This document shows positions 769 through 16,923 of a DNA stretch of 64,000 bases, in pieces (the first letter of the stretch is position 1; the number at the start of each line of letters is the position of its first letter). Under the pieces are notes generated by a model. The model saw only the letters and a program-made list of their open reading frames with translations, was not told where the DNA came from and did not search any database. This DNA is from a virus. Its lineage: Duplodnaviria > Heunggongvirae > Uroviricota > Caudoviricetes. Position numbers and translations under genes: made by a program. The stretch lies in IMG/VR virus record IMGVR_UViG_3300032265_002746. One strand, 5' to 3'.

Positions 769-2043
769 TTAAGTTCTCTTTATGAATGTGCCTTTCTCAT
801 CTCTAGCTTGGTCTGTACGACTAGTAAGCTTACCTACACGCTCTTGGTACTTCTGTCTACCTAGCTCCTCTCCATTACGTTCTATGAACCATTCTAGGGT
901 ATAGCGACCCTTGGCTTTTTCCTTCATCAATTGTTTAGATTCAGGGGACATAGGGATTCCTTTGTTATTAGCAACCCTACCCTTCATACTATCTGATAAC
1001 TTTTTTATATACGCAGCATAAGCTTCCGGTTCATCATCCTGATCAATCGGAGAGCCTCCACCTTGTGTCTTTAATGTTCTATTATATCCATTCTTGAAGC
1101 TATCAAAAAAGTTTATCCACCTAAGCTCTTTTTTGATAGCTTCAGATTTATCATCAGCTAAATCTATAACCTCAGCTTTCATGTTATCCCAACCGTATTT
1201 CTGTACAGCATGGTATAATCCTACAGTAGCCGACCTTTCAGATACTTTTTTATGCTGTGACATCCTGTGATAAAAATTTACAGTTCTTCCAATATAACAT
1301 TTACCAGACGGAGATGTTATCTTATAGATAAAATGCCTACCTTCCTTAAGCAAGGAGTCATAGTCATAGGTGAAATAATCAACACCTTCTTTAAATACTT
1401 TCAACTCTTTCTTTTTAGAAAATTGGCCTTTTTCTTTTTTAGCTACAGGAGTCTTAGTTTTAGGTTTCTTGTAATTAACTAAGCCGTTTTCTGAGTAATA
1501 CACCTCTCTAGATATTTCTTTTGTCTTTTTTGAAAGAATCTCTTCCATACCTGTAGCTTCTCTGAATTCATCCATAGTCATACCATGCTTCTGTATGTGT
1601 GTATTTCTGATAGCTTTAAAATACTTCATGCAAATAGGGCATTGAATTCTGTTGTCAGGGGATTCTGCGAGCTCTTTTTGCCTATTTAAGATTAACAACT
1701 GGGTATTAAATAAATGCTTTTCACTAGGGTATTGCTCTAAATAGTCTTTTATCTCTGTCTTATGATGATTTGTAATGTGCCCTGTAAGCATCCCACTTTT
1801 ATTAGTTGCATCTTTGAATACTTTGTTGCATATTTTACAATAGCATCTTGGGACATCTTTGTAAGGATTGTCTATTATATCATAGTAATCTAGACAATTT
1901 TCAAACTTTATACCTAACTTAGTTAAGTATTGCTTTAACCCCATGTTTACACTCCCTTCTGTGTACTTAAGTTCATTTCCGTCAATTTTACATACGGCTA
2001 GTTTTTCCCAATTCTCTACTCCCGGCTTATCTTTTGTTTTCAT
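769..2043 (-). CDS. GIY-YIG homing endonuclease (Seg/I-Tev-like) with N-terminal C2H2-like zinc fingers
   Basis: Central motif FIYKITSPSGKCYIGRT..R..H matches GIY-YIG. N-terminal CxxC..HxxxH repeats (CKICNKVF..HITNHH; CPICMKYF..HIQKH). C-terminal NUMOD-like GRVANNKG. Confidence 0.75.
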   Translation of the reverse strand: MKTKDKPGVENWEKLAVCKIDGNELKYTEGSVNMGLKQYLTKLGIKFENCLDYYDIIDNPYKDVPRCYCKICNKVFKDATNKSGMLTGHITNHHKTEIKDYLEQYPSEKHLFNTQLLILNRQKELAESPDNRIQCPICMKYFKAIRNTHIQKHGMTMDEFREATGMEEILSKKTKEISREVYYSENGLVNYKKPKTKTPVAKKEKGQFSKKKELKVFKEGVDYFTYDYDSLLKEGRHFIYKITSPSGKCYIGRTVNFYHRMSQHKKVSERSATVGLYHAVQKYGWDNMKAEVIDLADDKSEAIKKELRWINFFDSFKNGYNRTLKTQGGGSPIDQDDEPEAYAAYIKKLSDSMKGRVANNKGIPMSPESKQLMKEKAKGRYTLEWFIERNGEELGRQKYQERVGKLTSRTDQARDEKGTFIKRT

Positions 2044-2057
2044 CTTTGATGTTTTAC

Positions 2058-2072
2058 ATTAATAAATATAAG
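2058..2072 (+). promoter_or_regulatory. Conserved TAATAAATAT box upstream of minus-strand gene start 2043
   Basis: One copy of the recurring motif described in the findings. Confidence 0.3.
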
Positions 2073-2200
2073 CAAAGGTAATGTATCTAGTTCACATGAA
2101 AAAATTTATTTTGAATTATGTGGGATAATGGCTGTAATTTAATCTATTTTGGAAGTATTCATATTTTGAATTCTTTGGATAGAAATGTTTTTTAATCTTT

Positions 2201-2235
2201 CTAAAATGAAAGAGCCACTCTGTTAGAAGTGGCTC
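2201..2235 (-). terminator. Intrinsic terminator downstream of the capsid gene
   Basis: 8-bp stem GAGCCACT/AGTGGCTC at 2212-2235; on the minus strand it is followed by TTTCATTTTAG. Confidence 0.5.
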
Positions 2236-2265
2236 ATTTTCAATGGTTTATGTGGTTAATTAATA

Positions 2266-3948
2266 CTAGAACGTGTTGAAATCTGCAACTAAAATTTTTC
2301 CAAAAAATTCCTGCCTCAGAATTAGCTTTGCATAACGGGTCATTAATCCCTTACTAAGCGCAAATGTCTTAGGATCGTACACAAGTGGAGTAGAAATCAA
2401 TGGAATGTATGGAGCAAATACCCCACCGCTATCCAAGTAATTAGCTCCCTTGAAGCCCATGATGATAGCATTCTCTTGCATATAGGCGTTTACAAGTATT
2501 TTGAATTTACCATTCAATTTACCAGCTTCTTTACTACCGAATGCATATTCCATTTTAGAACCGTCAGTTCCAGCAGCGTAACCAGCGATTGACTCGATGA
2601 TTGCAGCAACTTTTGGAGATACCATTGCAACGTTAGCTTCACCTCTTTGAGTTTTAGCGTGGATTGCACGTGATACTTTTTGCATTTTAGTACCCAAAGT
2701 TTGGAACCAGTCTTGTTGGCTATTGTAATAACCACCTGCAGCAGCACCTACTTGAGAGAATGTGTTAGTACTAGAGTTGAATATTGTGTTGTTAACTGCT
2801 GACCAAACCTCTACAGTTTGAACTGCTGCTAAATCAATCATATCAATCAATTCTAAGTCAATTTCACGAGAAATGTACTCACTCAACAAACTTGTAGCTT
2901 CAGCTTCGATATCAATGCTTTGGAAAGCGTTGTAATCTTGTTGAGCTTCTTGAGTGTATGAGTATTTCAACTTACGAGTCTTGGCAGTGATACTTACACT
3001 TGTAGGTGCGATATCAATTTCAGGAATTGAATTACTACCTGTCAATGGAGTGTTAGGAGTGTCTTCGAAGTCACCACGGAAGTTACCGTTAGTTTGTACT
3101 GAGTAGTAAGAAACTACACTACCTGTAGGAGTAGTTGTACCAGATTGAACTGAGATACTACCTGTTACTAGGATACTTAATTGGTCAAAAGTACTATTGT
3201 AAGAAGTAAACTCAGGGTAGATTGTAGCTTCAGAAACTTGACCTAAAGAACCTGAGAATACGAATGATCTTACTGCAGTTGCATCAAAGTTAGTAAGGAT
3301 AGCAGATGCACTAGCAATAGTTATTTTACGTAGACCGTTAGCAGCTACTGATGCAGATACGTTAGCATTGTAGTTAGTGTCTGCGTAAGAAGCTGTTGTT
3401 ACTGTCATTGATTGTGAAGGGATAGTTGCGATGTACTCATTGATTGAGAAACCGAACTTACCAGCACCATACAAACCACCAAATGGATCAACACCTGGAG
3501 TGTTAGTAGTACCGTATACGCTTTGACCTAAGTTAAAACGGCTACCGGCTGTACCACCATTGATGTTAGGTTGTTGGTTGTTGTATTGGAAGTCTAGGTA
3601 GAATACAAGACCGTAAGGCATGCTCATTGGTTGTGTACTCAAGAATTCTTTTGCAGAAATCTCAGCAAATACTTTACGAACCATTGGCAAAACGATACCT
3701 GCCCATTGTTCACCAGCTCCTGGAGTGAAGTTAGCTCCACCTTTGTTGGTTGTTTGTTCTTCTACAAGGATTTGCTTGTTTTGGTTCTCAAGCAAAAGAG
3801 CCATGTTTCTTTTTTCATATGGGTGTTGCTTCATAGCTGTACCGTCTAATAGACCGGTAGGTGCCCATTTTTGTTCTAATCTTGAAAGGACTTGCATTTT
3901 GTCCTCCATGTTTCTAGATGATTCTAGTAATTTTGAGATTGTACTCAT
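2266..3948 (-). CDS. Major capsid protein (T4 gp23-like)
   Basis: C-terminal block ILVNAYMQENAIIMGFKGANYLDSGGVFAPYIPLISTPLVYDPKTFALSKGLMTRYA parallels T4 gp23 YIDQYA..YFTVGYKG..DAGIYYAPYVAL..DPKNF..MGFKTRYG. 560 aa. Followed by a terminator. Confidence 0.85.
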   Translation of the reverse strand: MSTISKLLESSRNMEDKMQVLSRLEQKWAPTGLLDGTAMKQHPYEKRNMALLLENQNKQILVEEQTTNKGGANFTPGAGEQWAGIVLPMVRKVFAEISAKEFLSTQPMSMPYGLVFYLDFQYNNQQPNINGGTAGSRFNLGQSVYGTTNTPGVDPFGGLYGAGKFGFSINEYIATIPSQSMTVTTASYADTNYNANVSASVAANGLRKITIASASAILTNFDATAVRSFVFSGSLGQVSEATIYPEFTSYNSTFDQLSILVTGSISVQSGTTTPTGSVVSYYSVQTNGNFRGDFEDTPNTPLTGSNSIPEIDIAPTSVSITAKTRKLKYSYTQEAQQDYNAFQSIDIEAEATSLLSEYISREIDLELIDMIDLAAVQTVEVWSAVNNTIFNSSTNTFSQVGAAAGGYYNSQQDWFQTLGTKMQKVSRAIHAKTQRGEANVAMVSPKVAAIIESIAGYAAGTDGSKMEYAFGSKEAGKLNGKFKILVNAYMQENAIIMGFKGANYLDSGGVFAPYIPLISTPLVYDPKTFALSKGLMTRYAKLILRQEFFGKILVADFNTF

Positions 3949-3978
3949 GTTTTTCTGTTTTTGTTTTTGGGTTTTTAA

Positions 3979-5238
3979 TTAGTCTTTAATACCTGCTCTC
4001 TTACGGAATACGTCAGCTTCAGGTAAGTAGTTGATTGTTGTTGTTTTTGCATTTTCAAATAAGATATCAGAAGTTTTTTGTCTGAAACCTAAAGATTCTG
4101 CGATAGTTTGTTTTCTCTTTACAGGAGTAATTGAAGATTTCAATACTTCGTAAGTTGCTTTTGCACCTTCTACTGATTTTACTTTGTCAAATGCAGTGAT
4201 TGCCTTTGCCTTATGTGCTTCAGTTAAGTTAGGAAGAACCAATACTTTGTTCAAGTACATGTTCTTAGCTGCAAACAATTTCATTTCGTTTAATTCGCTC
4301 TTCAATTGTTTAGCAAGTCTAACTTCTTCTAGGTGTTCTGTACTAACATTTTTGCTACCTGCAGCTTTAACATCACTTTCTTTACCAGAATTAATGTCTT
4401 TACCTTTCTCAGCACCTTTACCAGCTTGATAGGCTTTAGCCATATCGTCTACTAGTTGGTGTAATACTTTAATGTGGTCTTTAGAAAATGCTTTAGTAGG
4501 AGCTTTTGAATGAGCCATTTTACCTTTCTCTGCACCTTTAGCGATTTCTGGACCAGGGTTACCAAATCCTTTTTTCTCTTTTAGTTCATCAGGTTCGTAG
4601 CCTTCTTCTTCGTAGTCTTCATCCATTTCGCCTTCAGAATCCATTTCAGCCAAGATAGCATCGATGTCGTACTCTTCATCTAAATCGTTTTCTTTAATGT
4701 TTTCTTCGTCTTCTTCTTGACCTTCTTCGCTTTCACCTTCTTCTTCAGCATCTTTTTTAGCTTGACCCTTAGCGTCTTCTTCTTTATCTTCTTCAGAATC
4801 CTCGTAGTCTTCACCTTCAGATAATCTTTCGATTTCAGCTAGAGCTTCGTCAAGGTCAAACGCTTCTTCCATTGCAGACTCTTCTTCTTCTGTTTCTTCC
4901 ATATCTTCTTCACCTTGTGATTCTTCACTCAATGCACCTTTGATAGCAGCGATAGTGGTTTCATCAAGACCAAGTTTTTTAAGTCTTTCCATCATGTTAC
5001 CTTTAAGGGCTGTGTCAGTGTTCATTGGATTTTTTTGATTAGAAGTTTCACCAGCACCTGCGTAGTAGTTTTCATCTTCTTCTTCTGTTTCACCTAAGTC
5101 TTCGTTAAGTTGTTTTGAAAGAAGTTTCTCGATTTCAGGAGTGATTTTTTCGTGAAGAGATTGTTTGGCTTCTTCGATTGCCATTGCTTTCAGTTGCTTT
5201 GCGTCTGCAAGAGCTTCCTCTAATACAGTTTTTTTCAT
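3979..5238 (-). CDS. Prohead scaffold/core protein (gp22-like), highly acidic
   Basis: Long D/E-rich alpha-helical protein located between the prohead protease and capsid genes, as gp22 is in T4. Confidence 0.55.
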   Translation of the reverse strand: MKKTVLEEALADAKQLKAMAIEEAKQSLHEKITPEIEKLLSKQLNEDLGETEEEDENYYAGAGETSNQKNPMNTDTALKGNMMERLKKLGLDETTIAAIKGALSEESQGEEDMEETEEEESAMEEAFDLDEALAEIERLSEGEDYEDSEEDKEEDAKGQAKKDAEEEGESEEGQEEDEENIKENDLDEEYDIDAILAEMDSEGEMDEDYEEEGYEPDELKEKKGFGNPGPEIAKGAEKGKMAHSKAPTKAFSKDHIKVLHQLVDDMAKAYQAGKGAEKGKDINSGKESDVKAAGSKNVSTEHLEEVRLAKQLKSELNEMKLFAAKNMYLNKVLVLPNLTEAHKAKAITAFDKVKSVEGAKATYEVLKSSITPVKRKQTIAESLGFRQKTSDILFENAKTTTINYLPEADVFRKRAGIKD

Positions 5239-5406: not shown

Positions 5407-6021
5407 CTATTTTTTATCTAATCTACAAGGGCAAAAGTTGCTATTAGCACAGATAATCCCATGTATTATATCGTCAATCTTACTGTATTTATTTGCAAGT
5501 ATGGTTGCACCTTCATTCAATGAAAGTGTAGAACCTTGAGTGGATTCAAAAGAAACTGCATCAAAACACAGCATCTCTAAATCATCCTGAACCATTATGG
5601 CCTCATTTGTTTCCATTACGCTTCCCTGAGCCCTAGAACTAATCCCAAAAGGGATTTTCTTCATAGCTAGTTCTCTAAGTATTTTGCCAGAAGGTGTGTC
5701 TAGTATCTCTACGTCTCCGTATACTTCGTCACCTTCCCAGTGCATCTCGGTAATTACATGTGATACATTTTTAAGTTCAACCACCATTTGACTACAATGG
5801 TCTAGCTCGCCTAGTGCTCTTCTGGTTTTTACGAATTCTTCGTTGTATTTTGATAATACACGCTCAAGTACAGTTCTTGGATAGATTCTTCCGTTTCTAT
5901 TTTTTGCATTAGCCCTTTGAAGCAATATATGCCTAAATACAATTGGAGCATTAGGTAAGGATGCAGCTTCGTTTAACTGGTAATCGCTAAGGGTGACTGG
6001 GAAATATTCGGTAAGTATCAT
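5407..6021 (-). CDS. Prohead core protease (T4 gp21-like, peptidase U9)
   Basis: NRNGRIYPRTVLERV..ALGELDH aligns with T4 gp21 NRNKRLYPKRILEKAV..ALGELNHP. Position next to scaffold and capsid genes agrees. Confidence 0.8.
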   Translation of the reverse strand: MILTEYFPVTLSDYQLNEAASLPNAPIVFRHILLQRANAKNRNGRIYPRTVLERVLSKYNEEFVKTRRALGELDHCSQMVVELKNVSHVITEMHWEGDEVYGDVEILDTPSGKILRELAMKKIPFGISSRAQGSVMETNEAIMVQDDLEMLCFDAVSFESTQGSTLSLNEGATILANKYSKIDDIIHGIICANSNFCPCRLDKK

Positions 6022-9000
6022 TAGATTCTGTATTTTGCTTTTAAGTCTTCTAAAGCCTGTTGTAACTCCTCTTTATGTTTACAATTAGGTTGTGATAATT
6101 TATATTTAACAAAGGCAACTGCAATCTTATGCTCTTTTTTACCTGGATTAAAATAGGTATTTTGTAAGTATTCTGTGAATGGAGTTATTCCAGTCTTAGG
6201 CACGCACTTTTTATAAATATCATTTAATGTTTCAAGTATGTTCTGTTGGTTAGGGGTGAAAGAAGGTTTTTCTGATTCAAAAACCTCTTTGGTTTTACGT
6301 TTAACAGGCTCTACATTACCATCTCCATCTATATAAGTACGGTCATCGTCTGGAACTTGTACCGGATTAAAGATTTGAGCTCTTACATCATACGGAGCAC
6401 ATCCTAGTGCTTTTGCATATTTGTTGTAGAGGTCTATTCCAGGTTGTCCCATTTGTCTGATTAACTGATCAATCTTTACTAGTCTTTCTGAGTCTATTCT
6501 GTTTGTGTATACAGAAGTGTGGTCAGTGTAGTTTTGGTTATCAGCCGGGGTATTGTTTCTTAGTTCTCTTTCTAAATCGTCTTTATCCACTAGTCTTCCT
6601 TGTGGATATGGTACGAACATACCTAGAGAAGGAGTGTAGAGGTCTTCTAGGAGTCTTTGTTTCAATATCTCAACTACAAACTGCTCTTTTAGCCCTTTGG
6701 TTATTTTGATTTTCTTTAGCTTTTTTACTAAATTGTCTATACTACCTTCATTCTCTAAGTTAATTATCACCGGGAATGCTTTTACATTAGCTTTTGCTGT
6801 ATCCTTTAGCTTATTTATGGTACTAGCTAATAGACTATCTTTCTTCTTTATTTCTTTATTATAGGCTAGCTTTACTGCAGGGTCTACCTTTATTATAATT
6901 TTATTTCTGATTAAATTACCCTCTTCATTTTTTTCTTCAGGAATTATAATAGATTCAACTGGTTTAGCTAGTGCTTTCATGGTAGTAGCTACATACCTAG
7001 CTGGCTTGCCATAAGGAATTAGTTCTTCCTTCTCACCTCCGGTAAAGTCAAGTTCTCCTTGCTTAGCAGCTACTTTTTCTCCAGACTTTTTAACAGGCGT
7101 CTTACTACTCTTCTCCTTTTCTGTCTTAGCTTTAGCTCCTTTTCCTCCTTCTTCTCCTGCTGCTTGAGTGAGTTTTTTACCTGTTTTTGTATTTGTCTCT
7201 GGTTCATTTTTTGTATTTACTGGCTCTGTTGATTTTACTCTAGGTGTACCTTTTCTTGCTAATTCAAGCTTTTCTTTACTATTTAATTCGTCCCAACTCC
7301 TCTCTGTAACTCCTTTTCTTCCTAATTCTAGTTTTTGCATTAAGGTTAATTCAGAAAAATCTTTAGAGGTATCTTTAGGAGATAATTCAATTGGTTTAGA
7401 AGTATTTGAGCTATTGAATCTATTCAATAATTCTTTTGCTCTTTTATCTGCCAGTTTACTAATTTCCAAATCAGACATACCATCTGTTGCTTTTGGTGCC
7501 TGTGTTCTTACAAATTCAAGTTTATCTTTTAGAGGTAAGTCCTTGAACTCAGTTGGGTTGTTTATGATGAAAGGTACGTCTGCTGGTGATTTTTCTTTTT
7601 CTTTAGGCTTTTCTTCAGGAGTTGTTATGTTGGGATTAAGCTCTATTGTATTACTACTTTTTGTTAATTCTCGGGTTCCCTCTGGTTCTTCTTCTTTTTC
7701 TTCTTCCCCTTTAGTGCCTGTTAGATTAAGCACTATTTCATCACTACTTTTTGTTGGTTCTGTACTGCCACCTTCTTCATTATCCTCTTGATCTCTTTCT
7801 GGTTCATTACTAACACTATCTTCTTCTGTTTCTGGTGCAGGCTTCATTAAATTATAAAAGTCATTTAAAGTTGCATATCTAGAATCGTTATTTTTTGCAA
7901 ATTTAAAAGTTCCTTTAGCTGCAAAATAAAGTACCCCCAATGATGATAATAAAGCCGCTACTGCCGCTGCATTTTGACCTGCGCTATGATGCACAACATG
8001 TTTTACTGCATGCGCTGCTTGTTTAATAGTATCACCATGTTGTGTTACATGTGTTGCTGCATTACCTGCTAATTTTGCTACTGCGTTTGCTATCTTTTCT
8101 GTGGTAGCTGGTGGTAGTTTAACTGAGAATAAACCTTTGTTTCCAAAAGTCCCAGTAGATTTAGCAAATACATCTCCCATCTTACCTCCATGAGAAATTA
8201 AGTCGGTAAGTTTATCGGCTTGTTGATCTACAGATCCTGCACCGTTATTGGTGAATAGTTTTTTGGTTACTTCAAGACCTTTCTCGTAATTACCACCACC
8301 TACTTTTTCTATGGCAGATTTAAGGTTATTAACGCTTTGATTTTGGTTTAAGCTTATACCTGTCATCTTTTGCAAGATTTGGGTAAAGCCATCAGCTGCG
8401 GTTACAGCTACATTTTCATTCAGAGATTCATTAAAGGCTTTATAAGTACTCGCTAATTCGGAGTCTTTTAGAGTTTTTACGTACAGCTTAATACCATCTA
8501 TTAGCTTATTAGCTAAAATAGGGTCCATATAGCCTTGTTCACTTGAGTCTAAAGTAGCAGCATGCTTTATAGAATAGTACGTATCATATATAAATTCACA
8601 ACCTTGGTTAAACTTTTCAATTGATTCCCCGTTAGGAAATTCTGGATCTATTTTATTTAAAGCTGACTCTAACTTATCTAATTCATCATTAACAGCTTGG
8701 TCAGATATACTATTCAGCTTATCTTCTAAAGCTTTTCTTTCTTTTGATTTAGGCTTGTATTTATGTAGCGATGCAGAAAGTGATTTTAATTTACTCCAGG
8801 CACCTTCATTAAGTTGATTATCGGATAAATTTTTTTTTTTGAAGTCCTCTAGTAATTTGGTCTTTAACTTTTCTATTTTAACCCTATCGGAGTCTTCTTT
8901 AGTATCCTCAGGTTTAGCTGGCTTTACGGGCTTTACCTGGTGATTCTTATCCTTGTAGTTTTCACCCTTGGATATATCAATCATCTTTTTAGATTCCACT

Positions 9001-9440
9001 TCTTTATCTGTAGGGGCATGTTTACCCATTTCAATCTTAGTGTAGTAGATTGCATCCTTCTTCAAGTTAGCTATAGCTTTCTTTTGTGCAGCAAGAATAA
9101 CCTTATCATCGCTAAGGTCTTTTCCTTTTGCCTCATATCTCCATCCTTTTTCGTATTCAAAAGGATTGACTTGTTGAACCTGATGAGCAAAATCATCTGG
9201 TTTGTCTAAATCACTAATGGACTCTTTTAGAATTGACATGAAGTTGAATTCTTTTTCTTCACTTTTATTTACAGTTTCTGTAATGAACCCTCTGTTTTTG
9301 AATATACTTATCACTTCCTCATAAGAATTGAGGTGTGAAAACGTTTTGTTTACGCGTGTATCTTCTTTTGCTTCTTTCAAGAAATCTGCTTTTGAGAACT
9401 CTCCGGCTACTACTTGTCTGTATCTTGTATTGATATCCAT
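6021..9440 (-). CDS. Large K/E-rich virion protein, possible prohead-core or ejection protein
   Basis: 1139-aa ORF with low-complexity charged tracts, one hydrophobic segment (VAALLSSLGVLYFAA), and a location between portal and protease. ATGA overlap with the protease start. Confidence 0.6.
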   Translation of the reverse strand: MDINTRYRQVVAGEFSKADFLKEAKEDTRVNKTFSHLNSYEEVISIFKNRGFITETVNKSEEKEFNFMSILKESISDLDKPDDFAHQVQQVNPFEYEKGWRYEAKGKDLSDDKVILAAQKKAIANLKKDAIYYTKIEMGKHAPTDKEVESKKMIDISKGENYKDKNHQVKPVKPAKPEDTKEDSDRVKIEKLKTKLLEDFKKKNLSDNQLNEGAWSKLKSLSASLHKYKPKSKERKALEDKLNSISDQAVNDELDKLESALNKIDPEFPNGESIEKFNQGCEFIYDTYYSIKHAATLDSSEQGYMDPILANKLIDGIKLYVKTLKDSELASTYKAFNESLNENVAVTAADGFTQILQKMTGISLNQNQSVNNLKSAIEKVGGGNYEKGLEVTKKLFTNNGAGSVDQQADKLTDLISHGGKMGDVFAKSTGTFGNKGLFSVKLPPATTEKIANAVAKLAGNAATHVTQHGDTIKQAAHAVKHVVHHSAGQNAAAVAALLSSLGVLYFAAKGTFKFAKNNDSRYATLNDFYNLMKPAPETEEDSVSNEPERDQEDNEEGGSTEPTKSSDEIVLNLTGTKGEEEKEEEPEGTRELTKSSNTIELNPNITTPEEKPKEKEKSPADVPFIINNPTEFKDLPLKDKLEFVRTQAPKATDGMSDLEISKLADKRAKELLNRFNSSNTSKPIELSPKDTSKDFSELTLMQKLELGRKGVTERSWDELNSKEKLELARKGTPRVKSTEPVNTKNEPETNTKTGKKLTQAAGEEGGKGAKAKTEKEKSSKTPVKKSGEKVAAKQGELDFTGGEKEELIPYGKPARYVATTMKALAKPVESIIIPEEKNEEGNLIRNKIIIKVDPAVKLAYNKEIKKKDSLLASTINKLKDTAKANVKAFPVIINLENEGSIDNLVKKLKKIKITKGLKEQFVVEILKQRLLEDLYTPSLGMFVPYPQGRLVDKDDLERELRNNTPADNQNYTDHTSVYTNRIDSERLVKIDQLIRQMGQPGIDLYNKYAKALGCAPYDVRAQIFNPVQVPDDDRTYIDGDGNVEPVKRKTKEVFESEKPSFTPNQQNILETLNDIYKKCVPKTGITPFTEYLQNTYFNPGKKEHKIAVAFVKYKLSQPNCKHKEELQQALEDLKAKYRI

Positions 9441-10771: not shown

Positions 10772-13735
10772 TTAGTCTTTGTCTAACAAATTACCCTCGT
10801 CTAACATAGATAACTCTTTAGGCTCTCCTCCTTCAAACAGTTGGACTTTCTTTCCAGGTTTAATTTTTTCTAAGTCAGACTTCTTCAACCCTTCATTATA
10901 GATACCCTTTCTAGGATTAGGTCTTAGGCTGTCTTTCTTGTACTTATCTCGCATTTCTTTCTTCCCAAAAGGATCCCTTCCAGCAAAAGAACTGTCTGTG
11001 CCGTAAGAAGAAGCGTGTAATACCGGTCTGCCTATGACTTTTTTCTCATCATATCCATCTGGTACGCTTTCTGGGCCTGAAGCATTGTTTTTGTAAATAG
11101 ATGCTAGGTCATGTGGTGTTCCATAAGATACTCCGGATAAAGCTGGGTCATTACCTTCCTGCTCAATCTGAGTGTATCTGAATTTACGTTTAACATCTTC
11201 AGCTATAAGGTCACGCTCACGATTAATCTGGTCTTCACTCATCTGGAATATGTTATCATAAATCCAGTCTGTTGAGATAAAGTTCTTCTCTTGCATCTGA
11301 TTAGCTAAATCAACTTTTTCTTTCAATAAAGCAATACGTTCTTGCTCATGCAAGATAGAAGGGCGAGCAAGTGTTATGTCAAAATTGGCAAGGTCTGAAT
11401 CCTCATACCCTAATAAGGTAAGGTGTACCTGTGCTATTTTTTGTAGTTGAGATACAGTCAATCTTTGGATATACTCTATTTGGCGAGACCAACTCAAGCT
11501 TAATCCAGATAAGGTAGATTTACCATTTAACTCATCAGAATAGTTCAAATAAGCTTTTGGAATCTTTAAAGCAGAGAACATCTTATTGATGAAGTAATTC
11601 ATATCATCCATACCTGTATACTCCAATCCTTTAGCTGTATCAATTCTGGTTAGGTTGTCACCATTACGGACTGGAATATGGAAATCCTCCAATAGGTTCA
11701 TCATATTGAACTTATAGTTGAATTGTCCGGTTTTGTGGTCGAATAGGGGTGTACGCTTTTGATTGGAAATGTGCTTTTGCATCATGGCATCTACCTCATT
11801 TGGAGGAAGATTACCCACATTATAGTAGAACACCCTCTTTTCGGCAGACTTTGTAACACGATGGGTTACCGCAGCATCCTCCATCATGGTATATGCCTTG
11901 AATAATTTACGTCCAGGTTCAAGCCAGGAGTTATGTACTACTATCCCATTAGCAATAAAGTTGTGATTTTCAGACTCCACGTGTATGTCGTAGGTCAATT
12001 CTTTGTCAGACTCTTCTATGGCTGTAATAGGCTCTAAAATAACGTTTTCAATACCTTCTTGTTTATACTTCTTTGTTTGGATTAATTTCCTACCTTCCAT
12101 ATAAAAGCTCAAAAGGTAAGCTTCACTTTTATTATATATTTTATCTCCAAAAACAACAGTTGTCCTCTCTTTTCTTTTACGTATTTTGCCAGATTTTATT
12201 TTTAATCTTTGCAGTAATACTTTCAAATCCTCTAACATTTCTTTGTTAACAAGCTCAACTGTATACCTGTTACAGCCCCATTCATCTATATTGGTACTAC
12301 CGTCAGCATCTACTAATCCTTCTATAAATGCCAGTTGTACGTTTTCAGGCTGCTCATATATCCAAGATGGAAATCTCTTAGTTTTTGCTTTTCCTGTAAA
12401 TCCGTTATTTTTAAGGATAACATTAAGGGCTTTTGAATGACAGAAAGCTTGAGAGCTTATATTTGTATTTGTTATTTTTTTATTATGCTCACCACATATT
12501 TTTCCTGAATACTTTTGTAATATACCTTTGTACTTTTGATTGATGTCATCATGAACACCTTGTGCAAACGCAACGCAAGATTTAGATAACCACCCATCCC
12601 CTAGCATAAAGCCAAATAATCTTGCAAAGTCTTCTTCGTATGTATTTGGTATGTATTCCAATAACTTTTGCCAGCCATTTTTCTTATTTTCATTAGAAAC
12701 ATCTTTATTGATTTTGCTTTCAATATTAGGTTGTTTAAAAGAATAATTGGTAATAGCTACTAGGTCTTTTATGTTAAGTTCTTGTATCTGTTTGTATTTT
12801 AATACTCCGTCCGAAAATACAAGAATGGGGTGTTCTGCACTGCCTTCTATGAAGTTATTTTTAGTTGAAACTTTGTAGATTTCCTTTTCTCCAGAACACA
12901 CTTGCTTCAATACTTTAGTTAATTCATACTTATCTTCCTTGGTATTGTATGACCAAACCTTATCGCCTTCCTGTATTTTATCAATTGTATTTACTCCAAA
13001 TTCTGTCTCAACGTAGGAGTTACCTTTTAGACATCTGCCATATGGTAAAAAGTTACTATCTTTCATCAGCCTAAAATGTGCTATCTCATAGTTTTCATAA
13101 ATCCTATGATTACGGGATTGATTAATTGAGCTTACACCTCCCATGATTGCTCCTGGGTCTTGTATAAACCTGACATATTCCCCATTATTTGCATCTAAAC
13201 CCTCTTCTCTCACCATTTCATAAGGAGACAAGGATTTTACCCCATAAACTCCGAACTGATCTGAAAGACGTAACAAAAGGAAGAAATCTCCATATTTGCA
13301 AAAGGACCTTATCCACATCGGTAAATTGAATTCAACATTCAATACGTTGTAAAAAAGATTATACAATTCATCCTGGATGTTCTCAGAAGAAGACCTTATA
13401 GATAAGATTTCGTTATTCATTTCATTAACCTGTGTAGCTTCCTCACAAAGGATATCTAAGGCCGGTGCCACTAGGGCATCTAAGTCCATTGCTTCATAGT
13501 CTAGGTATAGTTGTGCCCTTGTTATCTGCATCCCATAGCCTATACCCGGTTCTATCAGGGAGCTATTGGAATATAATCTAGTATATCTATTTGCAAGCGT
13601 GTTTTGTTGTAAGTTTCCGAATGCTTGTATACCATTAAAATCGGATACTTTTAAGTATTTACCTCCTGCTCTTTTGATTATGGTGTCAGTAGTAAACTTC
13701 TGTTTTAATTGTGCAAATAGAGCTTTATTAGCCAT
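10772..13735 (-). CDS. Portal protein (T4 gp20-like) interrupted by an in-frame intein
   Basis: Exteins match gp20: MEDAAVTHRVTKSAEKRVFYYNVGNLPPNEVDAMMQKH parallels T4 [37 protein letters not shown], and RNGDNLTRIDTAKG parallels RDGKAVTEVDTLPG. 987 aa, of which about 368 aa are intein. Confidence 0.85.
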   Translation of the reverse strand: MANKALFAQLKQKFTTDTIIKRAGGKYLKVSDFNGIQAFGNLQQNTLANRYTRLYSNSSLIEPGIGYGMQITRAQLYLDYEAMDLDALVAPALDILCEEATQVNEMNNEILSIRSSSENIQDELYNLFYNVLNVEFNLPMWIRSFCKYGDFFLLLRLSDQFGVYGVKSLSPYEMVREEGLDANNGEYVRFIQDPGAIMGGVSSINQSRNHRIYENYEIAHFRLMKDSNFLPYGRCLKGNSYVETEFGVNTIDKIQEGDKVWSYNTKEDKYELTKVLKQVCSGEKEIYKVSTKNNFIEGSAEHPILVFSDGVLKYKQIQELNIKDLVAITNYSFKQPNIESKINKDVSNENKKNGWQKLLEYIPNTYEEDFARLFGFMLGDGWLSKSCVAFAQGVHDDINQKYKGILQKYSGKICGEHNKKITNTNISSQAFCHSKALNVILKNNGFTGKAKTKRFPSWIYEQPENVQLAFIEGLVDADGSTNIDEWGCNRYTVELVNKEMLEDLKVLLQRLKIKSGKIRKRKERTTVVFGDKIYNKSEAYLLSFYMEGRKLIQTKKYKQEGIENVILEPITAIEESDKELTYDIHVESENHNFIANGIVVHNSWLEPGRKLFKAYTMMEDAAVTHRVTKSAEKRVFYYNVGNLPPNEVDAMMQKHISNQKRTPLFDHKTGQFNYKFNMMNLLEDFHIPVRNGDNLTRIDTAKGLEYTGMDDMNYFINKMFSALKIPKAYLNYSDELNGKSTLSGLSLSWSRQIEYIQRLTVSQLQKIAQVHLTLLGYEDSDLANFDITLARPSILHEQERIALLKEKVDLANQMQEKNFISTDWIYDNIFQMSEDQINRERDLIAEDVKRKFRYTQIEQEGNDPALSGVSYGTPHDLASIYKNNASGPESVPDGYDEKKVIGRPVLHASSYGTDSSFAGRDPFGKKEMRDKYKKDSLRPNPRKGIYNEGLKKSDLEKIKPGKKVQLFEGGEPKELSMLDEGNLLDKD
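11930..13033 (-). mobile_element. Intein with LAGLIDADG homing-endonuclease domain inside the portal gene
   Basis: Starts with Cys in R|CLKGNSYVETEFG, has a block-B-like SAEH, two dodecapeptide motifs LFGFMLGDGWLS and AFIEGLVDADGS, and ends VVHN|S. Residues 235-602 of the ORF. Confidence 0.8.
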
Positions 13736-13755
13736 AGTATGTTCTTTTGTATTGT

Positions 13756-13767
13756 TATAAATATAAT
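13756..13767 (+). promoter_or_regulatory. TTATAAATATAA box, 20 nt upstream of the portal start
   Basis: Recurring motif with an exact TATAAATA on the plus strand. Confidence 0.3.
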
Positions 13768-15408
13768 TTAACTACCAAGTACCCATGAATAATCCTCCAT
13801 TTCTCCTGTTACAGGGTTCGGCATTAGGTAATTACTGGCCTTCCTGTTCATACTACTATGGATAACAGTAGCAGGTGTTGTTGATTTTATAGCTCCCAAT
13901 ACAGCTCTTTGCATGTCTGTGCTATTTGCTGCATATGCCAATGCAGTACCTCTCAGATAAGTGCCTATCGCTAATGGAATCAACAAGTCATCATTAGAAC
14001 CTGATTTAGCTGCAGGTTTTGGGCCTTTCCAAACAAATGCCCTCATTTCCGCATAAGTCCTCTTAGACCTTATTTTTATAGATTTTTCTTCTACAGCAAT
14101 CTTGAATGATTGTAGCATCGGTATTCTGGTAGAGGTTGATGTGGTAAATCCAGGAGTCATTTTGTCCTCATCCATATACTTATTAAGGTATTGACTAACA
14201 TTGGTTGTATCACCCTTGAACGACTTATATACATTTCTGTATCCAGAATCGGTAACGTAACTACAGGTAGTGTTACCTATACCTGTATTTTCAGCTATCA
14301 ATAATGCGCTGTTGTATTCAAGGCAGACTGATACCGCAAAGTTGGCTAGTTCTTTAGGTCCCATGTCTCCCATATATTCACCTATTTGATCACCAGTTAG
14401 CAAATCTACTATCTGAATGGTAGAATAGTCTAGTCCATCGCCCCTAGAGGTATCTAGTATAACTGCACAGTTGGTTACTTCTTCTGGAAATTTCCATATC
14501 CAGAATGCATTGTCCCTTCCCCTCATTTGTACCGGTTCTTCTAGGTTGACTTTTACCCAATCTAAATCTTCTGGTTCAAAGTATGTATTACCAGAACTAA
14601 TCATTTCGGCATCACACTCTTGTTTTGCAAGACGTTTACCAAGCTCTTGGTCTTGTCTATCTCTCCAATCTTGTGTATGCTCTGGGTGAACTCTCCAGTC
14701 TAGCTTTATGGGTAGGTATTCATTGTTACCTAGCTCTGCTTCTGAGTATAAATCTGCGAATTTATTCTCTGTACCTTCTGGAGTTGATAATACTATACAC
14801 TTACCTCCTGTCGCTAGTGTTTGCTGAGCTGCTGCATAAGTCTCCTCTGCGTCTTCCACGAATGCAAACTCATCATAAATAAGAAAAGAGGCTGTCTTAC
14901 CTCTAGCGGAGTTCTTAGCTCCGGATATTACCTCAATCTTTGATCCGTTAGATGATACTACTTTCTTTTGGTTTTCTTCTTTGGTAGTTGAATTGGACAA
15001 TTCAATCATCCATTTAGGTAACTCCTCAAAAGCAAACTTAAATTTATCCATTACGGCTTTAGCCATATTGGTAGTTGGAGCCATACAGAGTATTGAAGAG
15101 TCATTCTTGAATAAGAATAGCCACAATGCATATGCTGAAGCTAGTGTGGTTACACCTAGCTGACGGCTTTTAAGGATAATGATGCGGTCTCTGGTGTGCA
15201 TCAGATGTAAAAGCTTTCTTTGGAAAGGGTATAATTGGAATTTACTTCTACCTCCACTTGTGGTCTGAATCCACACATAGGTTAATATGAAGTATTCAGG
15301 GGATTCCATACACTTCTTAAACTCCGATAAAGCTAATTCTTTCAGGTTTACAGGTCTAACTGCCGGTGTATTAGTTGTTTGTGTCGTTTTCTTAGCTGCT
15401 TTTGTCAA
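13768..15408 (-). CDS. Terminase large subunit (T4 gp17-like)
   Basis: YPFQRKLLHLMH..LKSRQLGVTTLASAYALWLF parallels T4 gp17 YQRDMLKIMHD..NLSRQLGKTTVVAIFLAHF. Walker B LIYDEFAFV. C-terminal nuclease-like region. 546 aa. Confidence 0.85.
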   Translation of the reverse strand: MTKAAKKTTQTTNTPAVRPVNLKELALSEFKKCMESPEYFILTYVWIQTTSGGRSKFQLYPFQRKLLHLMHTRDRIIILKSRQLGVTTLASAYALWLFLFKNDSSILCMAPTTNMAKAVMDKFKFAFEELPKWMIELSNSTTKEENQKKVVSSNGSKIEVISGAKNSARGKTASFLIYDEFAFVEDAEETYAAAQQTLATGGKCIVLSTPEGTENKFADLYSEAELGNNEYLPIKLDWRVHPEHTQDWRDRQDQELGKRLAKQECDAEMISSGNTYFEPEDLDWVKVNLEEPVQMRGRDNAFWIWKFPEEVTNCAVILDTSRGDGLDYSTIQIVDLLTGDQIGEYMGDMGPKELANFAVSVCLEYNSALLIAENTGIGNTTCSYVTDSGYRNVYKSFKGDTTNVSQYLNKYMDEDKMTPGFTTSTSTRIPMLQSFKIAVEEKSIKIRSKRTYAEMRAFVWKGPKPAAKSGSNDDLLIPLAIGTYLRGTALAYAANSTDMQRAVLGAIKSTTPATVIHSSMNRKASNYLMPNPVTGEMEDYSWVLGS

Positions 15409-15550
15409 TTGGTTCTTTTTTCTTTTGGTATTTTTCTCTAGCCTTAGCGTCTATTACGGCTTTGTTCCGTGTATAATAACGCTTGGTGGCTTCGTTTTTA
15501 GCTTCTTTTACCTGCTCTTCCGTTGTATATTTTTTAGTCCTTCCCATTAT

Positions 15551-16309
15551 CTACAATTCAAAATTGTTTATATGTTGAAGGGTTCCGTCCTCAATGTAGT
15601 AGCAAGAATGAGCTTCTACTTTTGCTTTTTCTTTACCTTTCTTAGCTACTTTTTTGTTAAACCACTTTTCAGTCCTTTGATCACTGATATTACTGGATAT
15701 CTCTATGTACTGACCTTCAAATTTTCCTTCACGAGCTGCTGCACACTGTTCAAGAAATTCAGATTTATGGTATAAAGTTGAGGCTGTTACTAAACAGCCT
15801 TTTGGTTTCAACTTGTCTTTTAATCTTTGTTGTGTTTCTTTTAAGGTTGTTACAAAGTCTGCATTCTCTATTATAGCTAGATCTATTTCGTCTTCTGGTA
15901 TTTCTTCAGATGGACCTATTATGTACAGCTTAGAGCCATTCTTTAGCTCAATAAAGAATGGTGTTTGTGATTCTATAAGTGCAAAGATAGGTAATTTATT
16001 GAAAGAATACATTAGTAGGTCAATAAATTCTTTGGCTATTATCTTAGTAACACTTGTTACTACTATTTTTGTGTTCGGTCTGAATACCATCATCCAGGCA
16101 GAGTATGCTGTAAGCATGGTAGTTACACCCACTTTTCTGGCAGAGTTGATGAGTAGTTCACTTGTTTTTGGGATTAATCTAGTGATCTGCCATTGGTATT
16201 TTTTAGGGATTATCAATTCAATCCTGTGGCCATAACTCATCACTTTCCATTCATTTAAAAAGAAGTCTTCAAATGATGATGAACGTTTTTCATAAAGGCT
16301 TTGACTCAT
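15551..16309 (-). CDS. Terminase-ATPase-like paralog (N-terminal ATPase domain only)
   Basis: LINSARKVGVTTMLTAYSAWMMVF and LAIIENADFV parallel the Walker A and B regions of the adjacent terminase. No nuclease domain. 252 aa. Confidence 0.6.
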   Translation of the reverse strand: MSQSLYEKRSSSFEDFFLNEWKVMSYGHRIELIIPKKYQWQITRLIPKTSELLINSARKVGVTTMLTAYSAWMMVFRPNTKIVVTSVTKIIAKEFIDLLMYSFNKLPIFALIESQTPFFIELKNGSKLYIIGPSEEIPEDEIDLAIIENADFVTTLKETQQRLKDKLKPKGCLVTASTLYHKSEFLEQCAAAREGKFEGQYIEISSNISDQRTEKWFNKKVAKKGKEKAKVEAHSCYYIEDGTLQHINNFEL

Positions 16310-16923
16310 AACTTTACTTTCCAGTAGGTTCCTACACCGTACACAATCTTACCTGTTATGTCTACCCCTGCTTTTACCTGGAATAATCTGTCAGATTTGG
16401 TCTTGTAGATAAGTCCGGCCTCTGCTGAATTTACTAATGAAGGAAGGTTACCATTAAGTGCTCCTCCTACATACAGTTGATTCTTAGGTATACAAGGTTC
16501 TTTTATGGTTATGGTGTTGGTAATTGTTGGGTATTTGAAATTTAGTATGTATCCTGCTCCTTTTATTTTATTCTTGAATATGGTATCCATGATGTATACC
16601 TTGGAGCTATCAAATTTGATAGAGTCTTTGTATATGTTCTCTGCTAGGAACATATCTCTTAGTGATTCAAATTGAGTTCTTAGTTTACTGTAGTTTGTGT
16701 CTGGTATGAACAGAGTATCCTTTGATTTAACCACATAAGGAATTGTCTTTGTAATAGTTGGACTTGAGCCTTTTATGGTGTCTCTATGAGCCAACCATTG
16801 GGTGTCTCGTACTATTGTTACGGTTGGTCCTGGTATTGTGGTATTTCCACAACGTTGTAGAAGCATAACAAATAGTAAAACTAAGCATATGATGCTTAAT
16901 AGGTTTTGTTTTATGTAATTCAT
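16306..16923 (-). CDS. Secreted or membrane-anchored hypothetical protein
   Basis: N-terminal hydrophobic signal-like segment LLSIICLVLLFVMLLQRCG. ATGA overlap with the downstream gene. Confidence 0.55.
   Translation of the reverse strand: MNYIKQNLLSIICLVLLFVMLLQRCGNTTIPGPTVTIVRDTQWLAHRDTIKGSSPTITKTIPYVVKSKDTLFIPDTNYSKLRTQFESLRDMFLAENIYKDSIKFDSSKVYIMDTIFKNKIKGAGYILNFKYPTITNTITIKEPCIPKNQLYVGGALNGNLPSLVNSAEAGLIYKTKSDRLFQVKAGVDITGKIVYGVGTYWKVKL

Follow-up and report, generated by a model that had tools for sequence, protein, structure and literature searches.

A stand-alone homologue of the large-terminase ATPase domain, predicted to be catalytically dead, is encoded beside the large terminase of a tailed phage

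The tailed-phage record IMGVR_UViG_3300032265_002746 (Caudoviricetes), of which a stretch of 64,000 nucleotides (the window) was analysed, carries two genes related to the large terminase subunit (TerL) in one string on the minus strand: a complete TerL of 546 amino acids (13768..15408) and, upstream of it, an open reading frame (ORF) of 252 amino acids (ORF252; 15551..16309). Both genes lie where a first-pass annotation, made from the window sequence, had placed them. The current work shows that ORF252 is genuinely homologous to the ATPase domain of TerL, belonging by fold and descent to the TerL ATPase homology group, and is a real gene under purifying selection. The P-loop lysine, the catalytic glutamate and the nuclease domain have all been lost, and the protein is predicted to be catalytically dead. 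ORF252 is probably a non-enzymatic packaging helper, and we lean towards reading it as an accessory subunit of the terminase that may replace the small terminase subunit (TerS).

The first-pass annotation had proposed that the shorter protein repeats the ATPase region of the adjacent TerL, and this is borne out at the levels of sequence, profile and fold. In a pairwise BLASTP alignment, ORF252 matches TerL residues 62-267 with 25% identity over 206 amino acids (E=3e-15). ORF252 also matches PHROG 5989, 'terminase large subunit' (2e-13), and a profile made from ORF252 together with two orthologues picks out the ATPase domain of T4 gp17 in the PDB (2o0h, E=1.8e-7). Pfam-A returned nothing for ORF252 at E<=1, and NCBIfam just one sub-threshold match to the T7 large terminase. 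Across Pfam, PHROGs and NCBIfam, its matches are large-terminase families, together with one weak unannotated and one weak 'pyrophosphatase' PHROG. An hmmsearch against 1.84 billion representatives brought up TerLs. The AlphaFold model (pLDDT 92.1, pTM 0.90) has an alpha/beta ASCE fold with subdomains I and II, in which strands and helices alternate throughout. In Foldseek, this model superposes on 2o0j, 2o0h and 3cpe with TM-scores of 0.80-0.81 and a root-mean-square deviation of 2.8 A over about 247 columns, and the best matches in the PDB and among viral structures are all TerL ATPase domains, lid subdomain included. ORF252 ends at residue 252, where the hinge of TerL to the nuclease begins, and is without the RNase H-like nuclease domain, as had been noted. 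Profile and fold matches therefore lead to TerL ATPase domains and not to a TerS or an unrelated family.

The adjacent TerL is a T4-type protein with ATPase and RNase H-like nuclease domains (Pfam Terminase_6N 5.5e-15 and GpA_ATPase 6.8e-8; PHROG 2, 3e-38). Its residues 26-487 align to T4 gp17 (3ezk/3cpe) with E ~1e-31 over both domains, and the acidic residues of the nuclease fall within this alignment in ILD-TSRGDG, IAE-NTG and SNDD-LL. The segment S-A-R169-G-K ... F-L-I-Y-D179-E180 (14869..14910) is intact: the Arg that precedes Walker B is present, as are the Walker B Asp and the catalytic Glu. Judged by its residues (a lambda-type Lys, Walker B Asp-Glu, the C-motif and the acidic triad of the nuclease), TerL is a complete enzyme and the actual motor. 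The window phage is uncultured; the closest deposited TerLs are those of Flavobacterium phage immuto (40.6% identity) and, at 36%, Microcystis phage Mel-JY01. Going by the nearest TerL, its host is probably a freshwater member of the Bacteroidota.

In the HMMER alignments, Val occupies the position of the T4 gp17 Walker A Lys in both window proteins (SRQLGKTT in gp17, SRQLGVTT in TerL, ARKVGVTT in ORF252), just as the first reading of the sequence had it. The further claim, that both proteins carry a Walker A lysine displaced towards the N-terminus, holds for TerL and fails for ORF252. The TerL P-loop, L-K80-S-R-Q-L-G85-V-T-T (15145..15174), is a lambda-type deviant Walker A (K-X4-G-h-[ST]) with K80 five residues before the P-loop Gly, which matches the register of lambda gpA, K-S-A-R-V-G-Y-S. 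The lambda-type deviant motif K-X4-G-Y-S is credited to Mitchell & Rao 2004 in a passage of PMC13595956. TerLs of immuto, Mel-JY01 and Rhodothermus phage RM378 have the lambda-type P-loop as well. This variant of TerL is clade-wide and of an already described type, and is no peculiarity of the window locus.

The core family of ORF252 consists of the window protein, P0001-P0006, P0008 and P0009; its members have 239-280 amino acids and are 22-95% identical to ORF252. A word-indexed protein search reached two homologues, and an exhaustive HMMER search reached the family, which was seen in metagenomes only and forms about 8 clusters at 50% identity. The motif alignment took in 10 paralogues in all (ORF252 and 9 further ones) along with T4 gp17 and the cognate TerLs. 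The degenerate P-loop of ORF252, N55-S-A-R58-K-V-G61-V-T-T64 (16118..16147), has Ser56 at -5, the lambda position, and Val at +1, the T4 position, so that neither alternative lysine is present, and both positions are empty in 10 of the 10 core paralogues. The basic residues that had been taken for a shifted Lys/Arg are of another kind: R58 is the ordinary P-loop Arg, found in every aligned TerL including T4 gp17 (the R of SRQLGKTT), and K59 sits at -2 and is unconserved, being K, Q, E or M among the orthologues.

The loss of the catalytic Glu had been overlooked. In the degenerate Walker B of ORF252, L-A-I-I-E148-N149 (15863..15880), the Asp is replaced by E148 and the catalytic Glu by N149 (IIEN), against D179-E180 in TerL. 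The Walker B pair of the orthologues is DN (7), DA (1) or DQ (1), and that of every cognate TerL is DE. Across the core paralogues the catalytic-Glu position is N in 8/10 and otherwise A or Q. The Asp-to-Glu change of ORF252 is shared by the TerL of RM378 (L003, 4923-6449), which has a Walker B Glu-Glu (LLIVEE) and a Lys at -5.

An Arg ten residues before the Walker B Asp, just ahead of the Walker B strand, is kept in 13/13 aligned TerLs (S-A-R-G-K in the window TerL, A-V-R-G-N in T4). ORF252 carries an acidic E-I-P-E-D-E-I-D at this site, and the Arg is absent in the window lineage of paralogues. PMC5727402 places the trans-finger R139 of P74-26 between alpha2 and beta3 and notes an Arg in T4; we infer that the TerL Arg is structurally equal to this site and is a candidate trans-acting finger. 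ORF252 was also considered as the donor of a trans-activating Arg finger, which is unsupported for the window lineage, where the TerL-conserved Arg is gone.

Other parts of the ATPase site are kept: Q39, R58, G61, T63-T64, an acidic Walker B residue, the N-G-S strand, and Ser177-Thr178 of the C-motif. Q39 belongs to the retained adenine-recognition Q-motif K-K-Y38-Q39-W-Q (16187..16204, family alignment) and is invariant throughout the paralogue family. Most of the 13 family-invariant positions (e.g. Q39, N55, R58, G61, N124, S126, A150, F152 and S177) lie within or beside the ATPase motifs, and this clustering suggests that the pocket is still under selection. With the catalytic residues and the nuclease domain lost, however, ORF252 itself cannot serve as a motor or a nuclease.

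The lysine and Walker B positions were surveyed in the 150 best representatives from the exhaustive HMMER search. Lys at -5 only was found in 96 relatives, the classical +1 Lys only in 25, both in 0 and neither in 25. The two Walker A lysine positions are thus mutually exclusive over the 121 lysine-bearing relatives; in the 96 with Lys at -5, the residue after the Gly is not Lys and is usually hydrophobic. All 25 lysine-less relatives are short (235-312 amino acids), and their catalytic position is N in 14, A, Q, S and E in 1 each, and unparsed in 7; in the lysine-bearing relatives it is Glu in 84 of the 85 that could be parsed. Among the surveyed relatives, loss of the Lys, loss of the Glu and loss of the nuclease domain go together. 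In a tblastn search of 50,697 deposited phage genomes with ORF252 and P0005, the annotated matches listed were all TerL and two listed records were unannotated; no stand-alone core-family member was among the listed matches. Two short, Lys-less TerL-ATPase-like proteins with a DN pair, P0078 (L031:6001-6777) and P0100 (L032:6001-6939), come from large phage contigs. Their neighbours are nucleotide-metabolism, helicase and ADP-ribosyl genes, and no TerL was called in the flanks examined, which extended about 4-6 kb to either side. The degenerate TerL-ATPase fold may have been recruited more than once.

The surroundings of the gene are strongly conserved. In 11 of 11 contexts the order is an ORF205-like gene, the paralogue, ORF51 in some, a full-length TerL and a T4-type portal, even though the TerLs have diverged to 50% identity. 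This synteny supports the remark of the first-pass annotation that ORF252 occupies the position of a TerS, and related phages do carry the same pair, with the paralogue directly upstream of TerL. The contexts include paralogues 92-95% identical to ORF252 (L005, L009, L010, L011), more distant ones (L013, 53%, from the 147-kb contig IMGVR_UViG_3300006129_000005; L004, 52%; L007/L008, 37%) and the most distant ones (L024-26 with P0005, L027 with P0004, L028-30 with P0006, and L036 with P0008). ORF252 had been described as adjacent to TerL. The two do stand in the same tight minus-strand string, but a 51-amino-acid gene between them (ORF51; 15392..15547) had been missed. The stop codon of the upstream gene ORF205 (16306..16923) overlaps the ORF252 start (ATGA); ORF51 starts 3 nt past the ORF252 stop, and its end overlaps the TerL start by 17 nt. 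In the distant lineages L026-L028 and L036 there is no ORF51 between the paralogue and TerL. There the paralogue stop meets the TerL start as TAATG (L026 and L027), with an 8-nt overlap (L036) or across a 5-nt gap (L028). Since stop and start overlap or abut in several lineages, the two proteins are probably made together. The TerL start codon is TTG in the window and ATG at the same position in L013 and L007. The TTG (15408) lies under the end of ORF51, and together these features suggest that initiation of TerL may be weak and coupled.

The ratio of non-synonymous to synonymous substitution rates (dN/dS) against three close relatives is 0.115-0.126 for ORF252, 0.07-0.11 for TerL and 0.04-0.08 for ORF51. 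At the amino-acid level the paralogue has diverged at roughly double the pace of TerL: where the TerLs share 81, 73 and 71% identity, the paralogues share 53, 51 and 37%. The pairwise identities of paralogue and TerL are nonetheless correlated (r=0.90) and the neighbour-joining topologies match, which points to a single ancient duplication, after which the two genes were inherited together vertically. No paralogue beside TerL was found in the closest outgroup TerL examined (P0007) or in the cultured relatives immuto, Mel-JY01 and RM378. Thus the early suggestion of a duplicated or degenerate motor ATPase has gained ground, for the family is without both lysines and the catalytic Glu and is maintained at a dN/dS of about 0.12.

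The other small genes of the string were considered as possible sources of a TerS. None of ORF252, ORF51 and ORF205 matches a small-terminase family (Pfam E<=1, PHROGs E<=1, NCBIfam E<=0.1). ORF205, which has an N-terminal hydrophobic segment, has no match in Pfam, PHROG or NCBIfam and is unlike a TerS; a protein of about 210 amino acids occupies its position in L024-L028 and L036. ORF51 is a genuine gene under constraint and encodes a small basic protein that is confined to the window sub-lineage (L005, L009, L010, L011, L013, L007/L008), and no homologues were found outside it. In L004, a truncated TnpB/IS605 OrfB N-terminal fragment (L004:1361-1723, plus strand; 120 amino acids, HTH_OrfB_IS605) lies between paralogue and TerL and replaces the N-terminal half of ORF51, of which a C-terminal remnant is left at L004:1896-1976. 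A gene restricted to one sub-lineage, half-deleted in L004 and absent in L026-L028 and L036, cannot be the TerS of the group, and ORF51 was ruled out for this role. A canonical TerS elsewhere was looked for in the window, where a PHROG scan of 62 other small ORFs, run as 10 concatenated pseudo-proteins, gave no small-terminase family at E<=0.01.

Two unusual modes of translation were also ruled out. ORF252 and ORF51 are in frame across TAG-ATA (window 15548-15553), in L005 and L013 as in the window; in L007, however, the two ORFs overlap in different frames, which excludes a read-through fusion, and the shared frame is probably coincidental. A -1 frameshift leading out of ORF51 into TerL was likewise dismissed on the junction sequence: relative to ORF51, TerL lies in the +1 frame, and it has its own start, an ATG in L013 and L007.

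Taken together, gene position, translational coupling and the lack of a recognisable TerS in the window fit a regulatory or TerS-replacing role. ORF252 is an ancient, vertically inherited paralogue of the ATPase domain of the phage's own TerL, standing in the slot of T4 gene 16 (TerS). As an accessory subunit it would most likely bind TerL through the ATPase-ATPase interfaces used for TerL oligomerisation, so as to regulate the packaging-initiation complex or nucleate it, and would thereby assume some or all of the TerS role. It might also bind nucleotide without hydrolysis. Such binding is possible because the pocket residues are the most conserved and because the residue fixed in place of the Glu is Asn and not an arbitrary one. 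A more specific form, in which the holoenzyme is made of an active TerL and a dead paralogue that replaces TerS, the two co-assembling through ATPase-ATPase interfaces in the initiation complex or the motor ring, is put forward only tentatively.

Several observations weigh against an accessory terminase subunit. Adjacency and coupling speak for co-expression of ORF252 and TerL, and not for interaction. Similar Lys-less short proteins with a DN pair in other large phages do not stand beside TerL, so that the fold may serve other roles. The twofold faster change of the paralogue could also fit an arms-race function. The TerS screen covered 64 kb of a genome of about 150 kb, and divergence often puts TerS proteins beyond detection. 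Moreover, immuto, Mel-JY01 and RM378, which are without the paralogue, are likewise without a recognisable TerS upstream of TerL, the ORFs there being unrelated to the paralogue; the missing TerS is therefore weak evidence. Finally, ORF252 has an isoelectric point of 8.5 within a family range of 5.9-9.2, resembling TerL ATPase domains. It is thus not notably basic and gives no sign of TerS-like DNA binding, and DNA binding inferred from charge was ruled out on the same values.

Other explanations of ORF252 have to be weighed against this evidence. Tandem duplication naturally leaves a copy next to its parent, and the location might mark only the site of duplication, the protein having been recruited outside packaging as a nucleotide-sensing regulator or an accessory of replication or recombination. 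The related Lys-less short copies away from TerL in other phages agree with such a history. However, adjacency and the stop/start overlap have persisted while the TerLs diverged to about 50% identity, and a TnpB fragment, homing endonucleases and inteins have repeatedly entered the neighbourhood without the pair ever being separated. A role outside packaging therefore seems unlikely.

The faster change of the paralogue is also what would be expected of a protein in conflict, and ORF252 might be an anti-defence decoy that mimics the TerL ATPase domain and blocks or soaks up host sensors of TerL, such as STAND NTPases of the Avs1-3 type, without presenting the full activating surface. Avs sensors recognise TerL, and the Avs3-terminase complex 8dgc is among the fold matches of ORF252; a contact between KpAvs2 and the ATPase domain of TerL is predicted with AlphaFold-Multimer in PMC11564622. 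Related Lys-less short copies among the non-structural genes of other large phages point in the same direction. A mimic of TerL would be expected to trigger such sensors and not to silence them, however, and no precedent was found in the literature. The dN/dS of 0.12 indicates no overall positive selection, and the strict adjacency to TerL, with coupling inside a late head/packaging module in 11/11 contexts, speaks against a decoy, which we consider quite improbable.

The retained Q-motif Gln, P-loop Arg, Gly and Thr-Thr, acidic Walker B and C-motif Ser-Thr, with conservation centred on the ATPase motifs, could be taken to mean that ORF252 is still an active NTPase, a second motor or a helicase-like enzyme using R58/K59 in place of the P-loop Lys and E148 as the base. 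Against this, K59 varies (K, Q, E, M), all 10/10 members have N, A or Q in place of the catalytic Glu, and the position of E148 is Asp in 8/10, which makes it an ordinary Walker B residue. In the window lineage, the Arg that precedes Walker B is gone. Changes of the Walker A Lys or the catalytic Glu are lethal in the lambda and HK97 terminases, according to passages of PMC13595956 and PMC6379665. Activity of this kind is very unlikely.

That ORF252 is a functionless leftover, either of a partly duplicated TerL in decay or of a mobile element, might be suspected from its lost catalytic residues, its faster change and a region rich in inteins (portal, TerL) with a TnpB remnant in L004. This is effectively refuted by the dN/dS of about 0.12, by a reading frame that stays intact in all relatives, even those at 22-27% identity, by the high-confidence predicted fold and by the replacement of the same residues family-wide, with Asn at the catalytic position in 8/10. 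Lastly, split TerLs do exist (L020, with a 270-amino-acid ATPase ORF and a 251-amino-acid nuclease ORF), and short 'large terminase' proteins are also represented by PHROG 5989 and certain BFVD entries, but ORF252 as the N-terminal half of a split TerL is refuted by the complete downstream TerL, full length with an intact ATPase domain and aligned to T4 gp17 over both domains, to which ORF252, its catalytic residues gone, is just 25% identical.

The genes ORF205, ORF252, ORF51, TerL and portal form a single compact minus-strand run at positions 10772-16923. The portal downstream of TerL (10772..13735, 987 amino acids) is of the T4 type (Pfam Portal_T4 6e-57) and marks the module as packaging and head genes. 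In the window its coding sequence is split by an intein that brings a LAGLIDADG homing endonuclease (Intein_splicing 1.6e-17, LAGLIDADG_3 1e-9). The portal orthologue in L005, 95% identical, is intein-free at 619 amino acids, and those of L010 and L013 have 1083 and 1451 amino acids, the latter with two intein-splicing stretches and an HNH_3 domain. TerL of a 94%-related phage (L009:8860-10860, plus strand) is likewise interrupted by an intein after about residue 265, with Hint domains and a weak LAGLIDADG_3. With inteins in both portal and TerL, the two genes are hotspots of intein insertion among these phages. Between TerL and portal in L028 (10422-11336) and L036 (8327-9238), on the plus strand, a gene of about 303 amino acids with faint NUMOD-type matches is a possible homing endonuclease. 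Downstream of the portal, the stretch with the minus-strand ORFs 25-729, 5407-6021 and 6021-9440 holds a PhoH-like protein (PHROG 170, 4e-60), a head maturation protease (PHROG 207, 4e-40) and a 1139-amino-acid ORF; the last has no Pfam match, and proteins at the same position in relatives carry DUF5661.

ORF252-like proteins can be set beside several known systems. With the N-terminal ATPase domain of T4 gp17, ORF252 shares the fold, with subdomains I and II, and the order of motifs (Q-motif, P-loop Arg, Walker B strand, C-motif). It differs in lacking the Walker A Lys, the catalytic Glu and the nuclease, and in being a separate gene beside a complete TerL. With lambda gpA, it is the window TerL that shares the Lys five residues before the Gly, its classical Lys position being taken by a hydrophobic residue, whereas ORF252 has Ser at -5; in other respects the window TerL is T4-like (Terminase_6N 5.5e-15 versus GpA_ATPase 6.8e-8). 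TerS proteins are small helical ring-formers with a helix-turn-helix, as known from solved structures: the DNA-binding helix-turn-helix is N-terminal, and a central oligomerisation domain builds rings of 8-12 subunits. They bind the pac or cos region and modulate the ATPase and nuclease activities of TerL. With a TerS such as T4 gp16, ORF252 shares the gene position, upstream of TerL on the same strand, with ORF51 between them in the window. The resemblance is one of position only, for the predicted alpha/beta ASCE fold is unrelated and no TerS profile is matched.

Other ATPase-only 'large terminase' ORFs of about 230-350 amino acids, annotated as TerL or resembling it, are PHROG 5989, L020, L023 and a 235-amino-acid BFVD entry from Pectobacterium phage CBB. 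However, L023 (PRQCGKS, LILDE) and L020 (K-5 type, IDE) keep the catalytic residues, and it is the combined loss of Lys and Glu that distinguishes the ORF252 family. In L023, an unrelated T4-like contig, an ATPase-only ORF of 274 amino acids with intact motifs (1872-2696, plus strand; PRQCGKS, LILDELAY) stands immediately upstream of a canonical G-K-S TerL (2681-4180, plus strand), which it overlaps, and from its motifs looks like an intact extra ATPase copy at the same position as ORF252. In L020, the ATPase and nuclease ORFs (6741-7553 and 7532-8287, plus strand) overlap and represent either a true split gene or a frameshift. Because ORF252-like ORFs match large-terminase PHROGs, they risk being labelled 'terminase large subunit', and ought to be left out wherever TerL serves as a marker.

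Searches of the literature turned up no account of a catalytically dead ATPase paralogue next to TerL. Packaging motors of tailed phages are usually described as homo-oligomeric TerL rings with an unrelated small subunit, and we know of no viral packaging motor with a non-catalytic paralogous subunit. The ORF252 family suggests either a pseudo-enzyme subunit that regulates or assembles the motor, or a TerL fold recruited otherwise, e.g. for immune evasion. If the holoenzyme did pair an active TerL with a dead paralogue in place of TerS, no viral packaging machine before it would have had a pseudo-ATPase subunit, and evolution would have filled the role of TerS in a second, independent way. The family also supplies naturally occurring P-loop-Lys-minus, Glu-to-Asn variants with which to ask how an ATPase-dead subunit affects a ring motor. 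Non-catalytic paralogous subunits are well known in other ATPase machines, such as delta and delta-prime of the clamp loader and alpha of the F1-ATPase. By analogy, the same logic may apply to ORF252: the fold and its interfaces would have been kept, catalysis lost, and the protein retained beside the active subunit.

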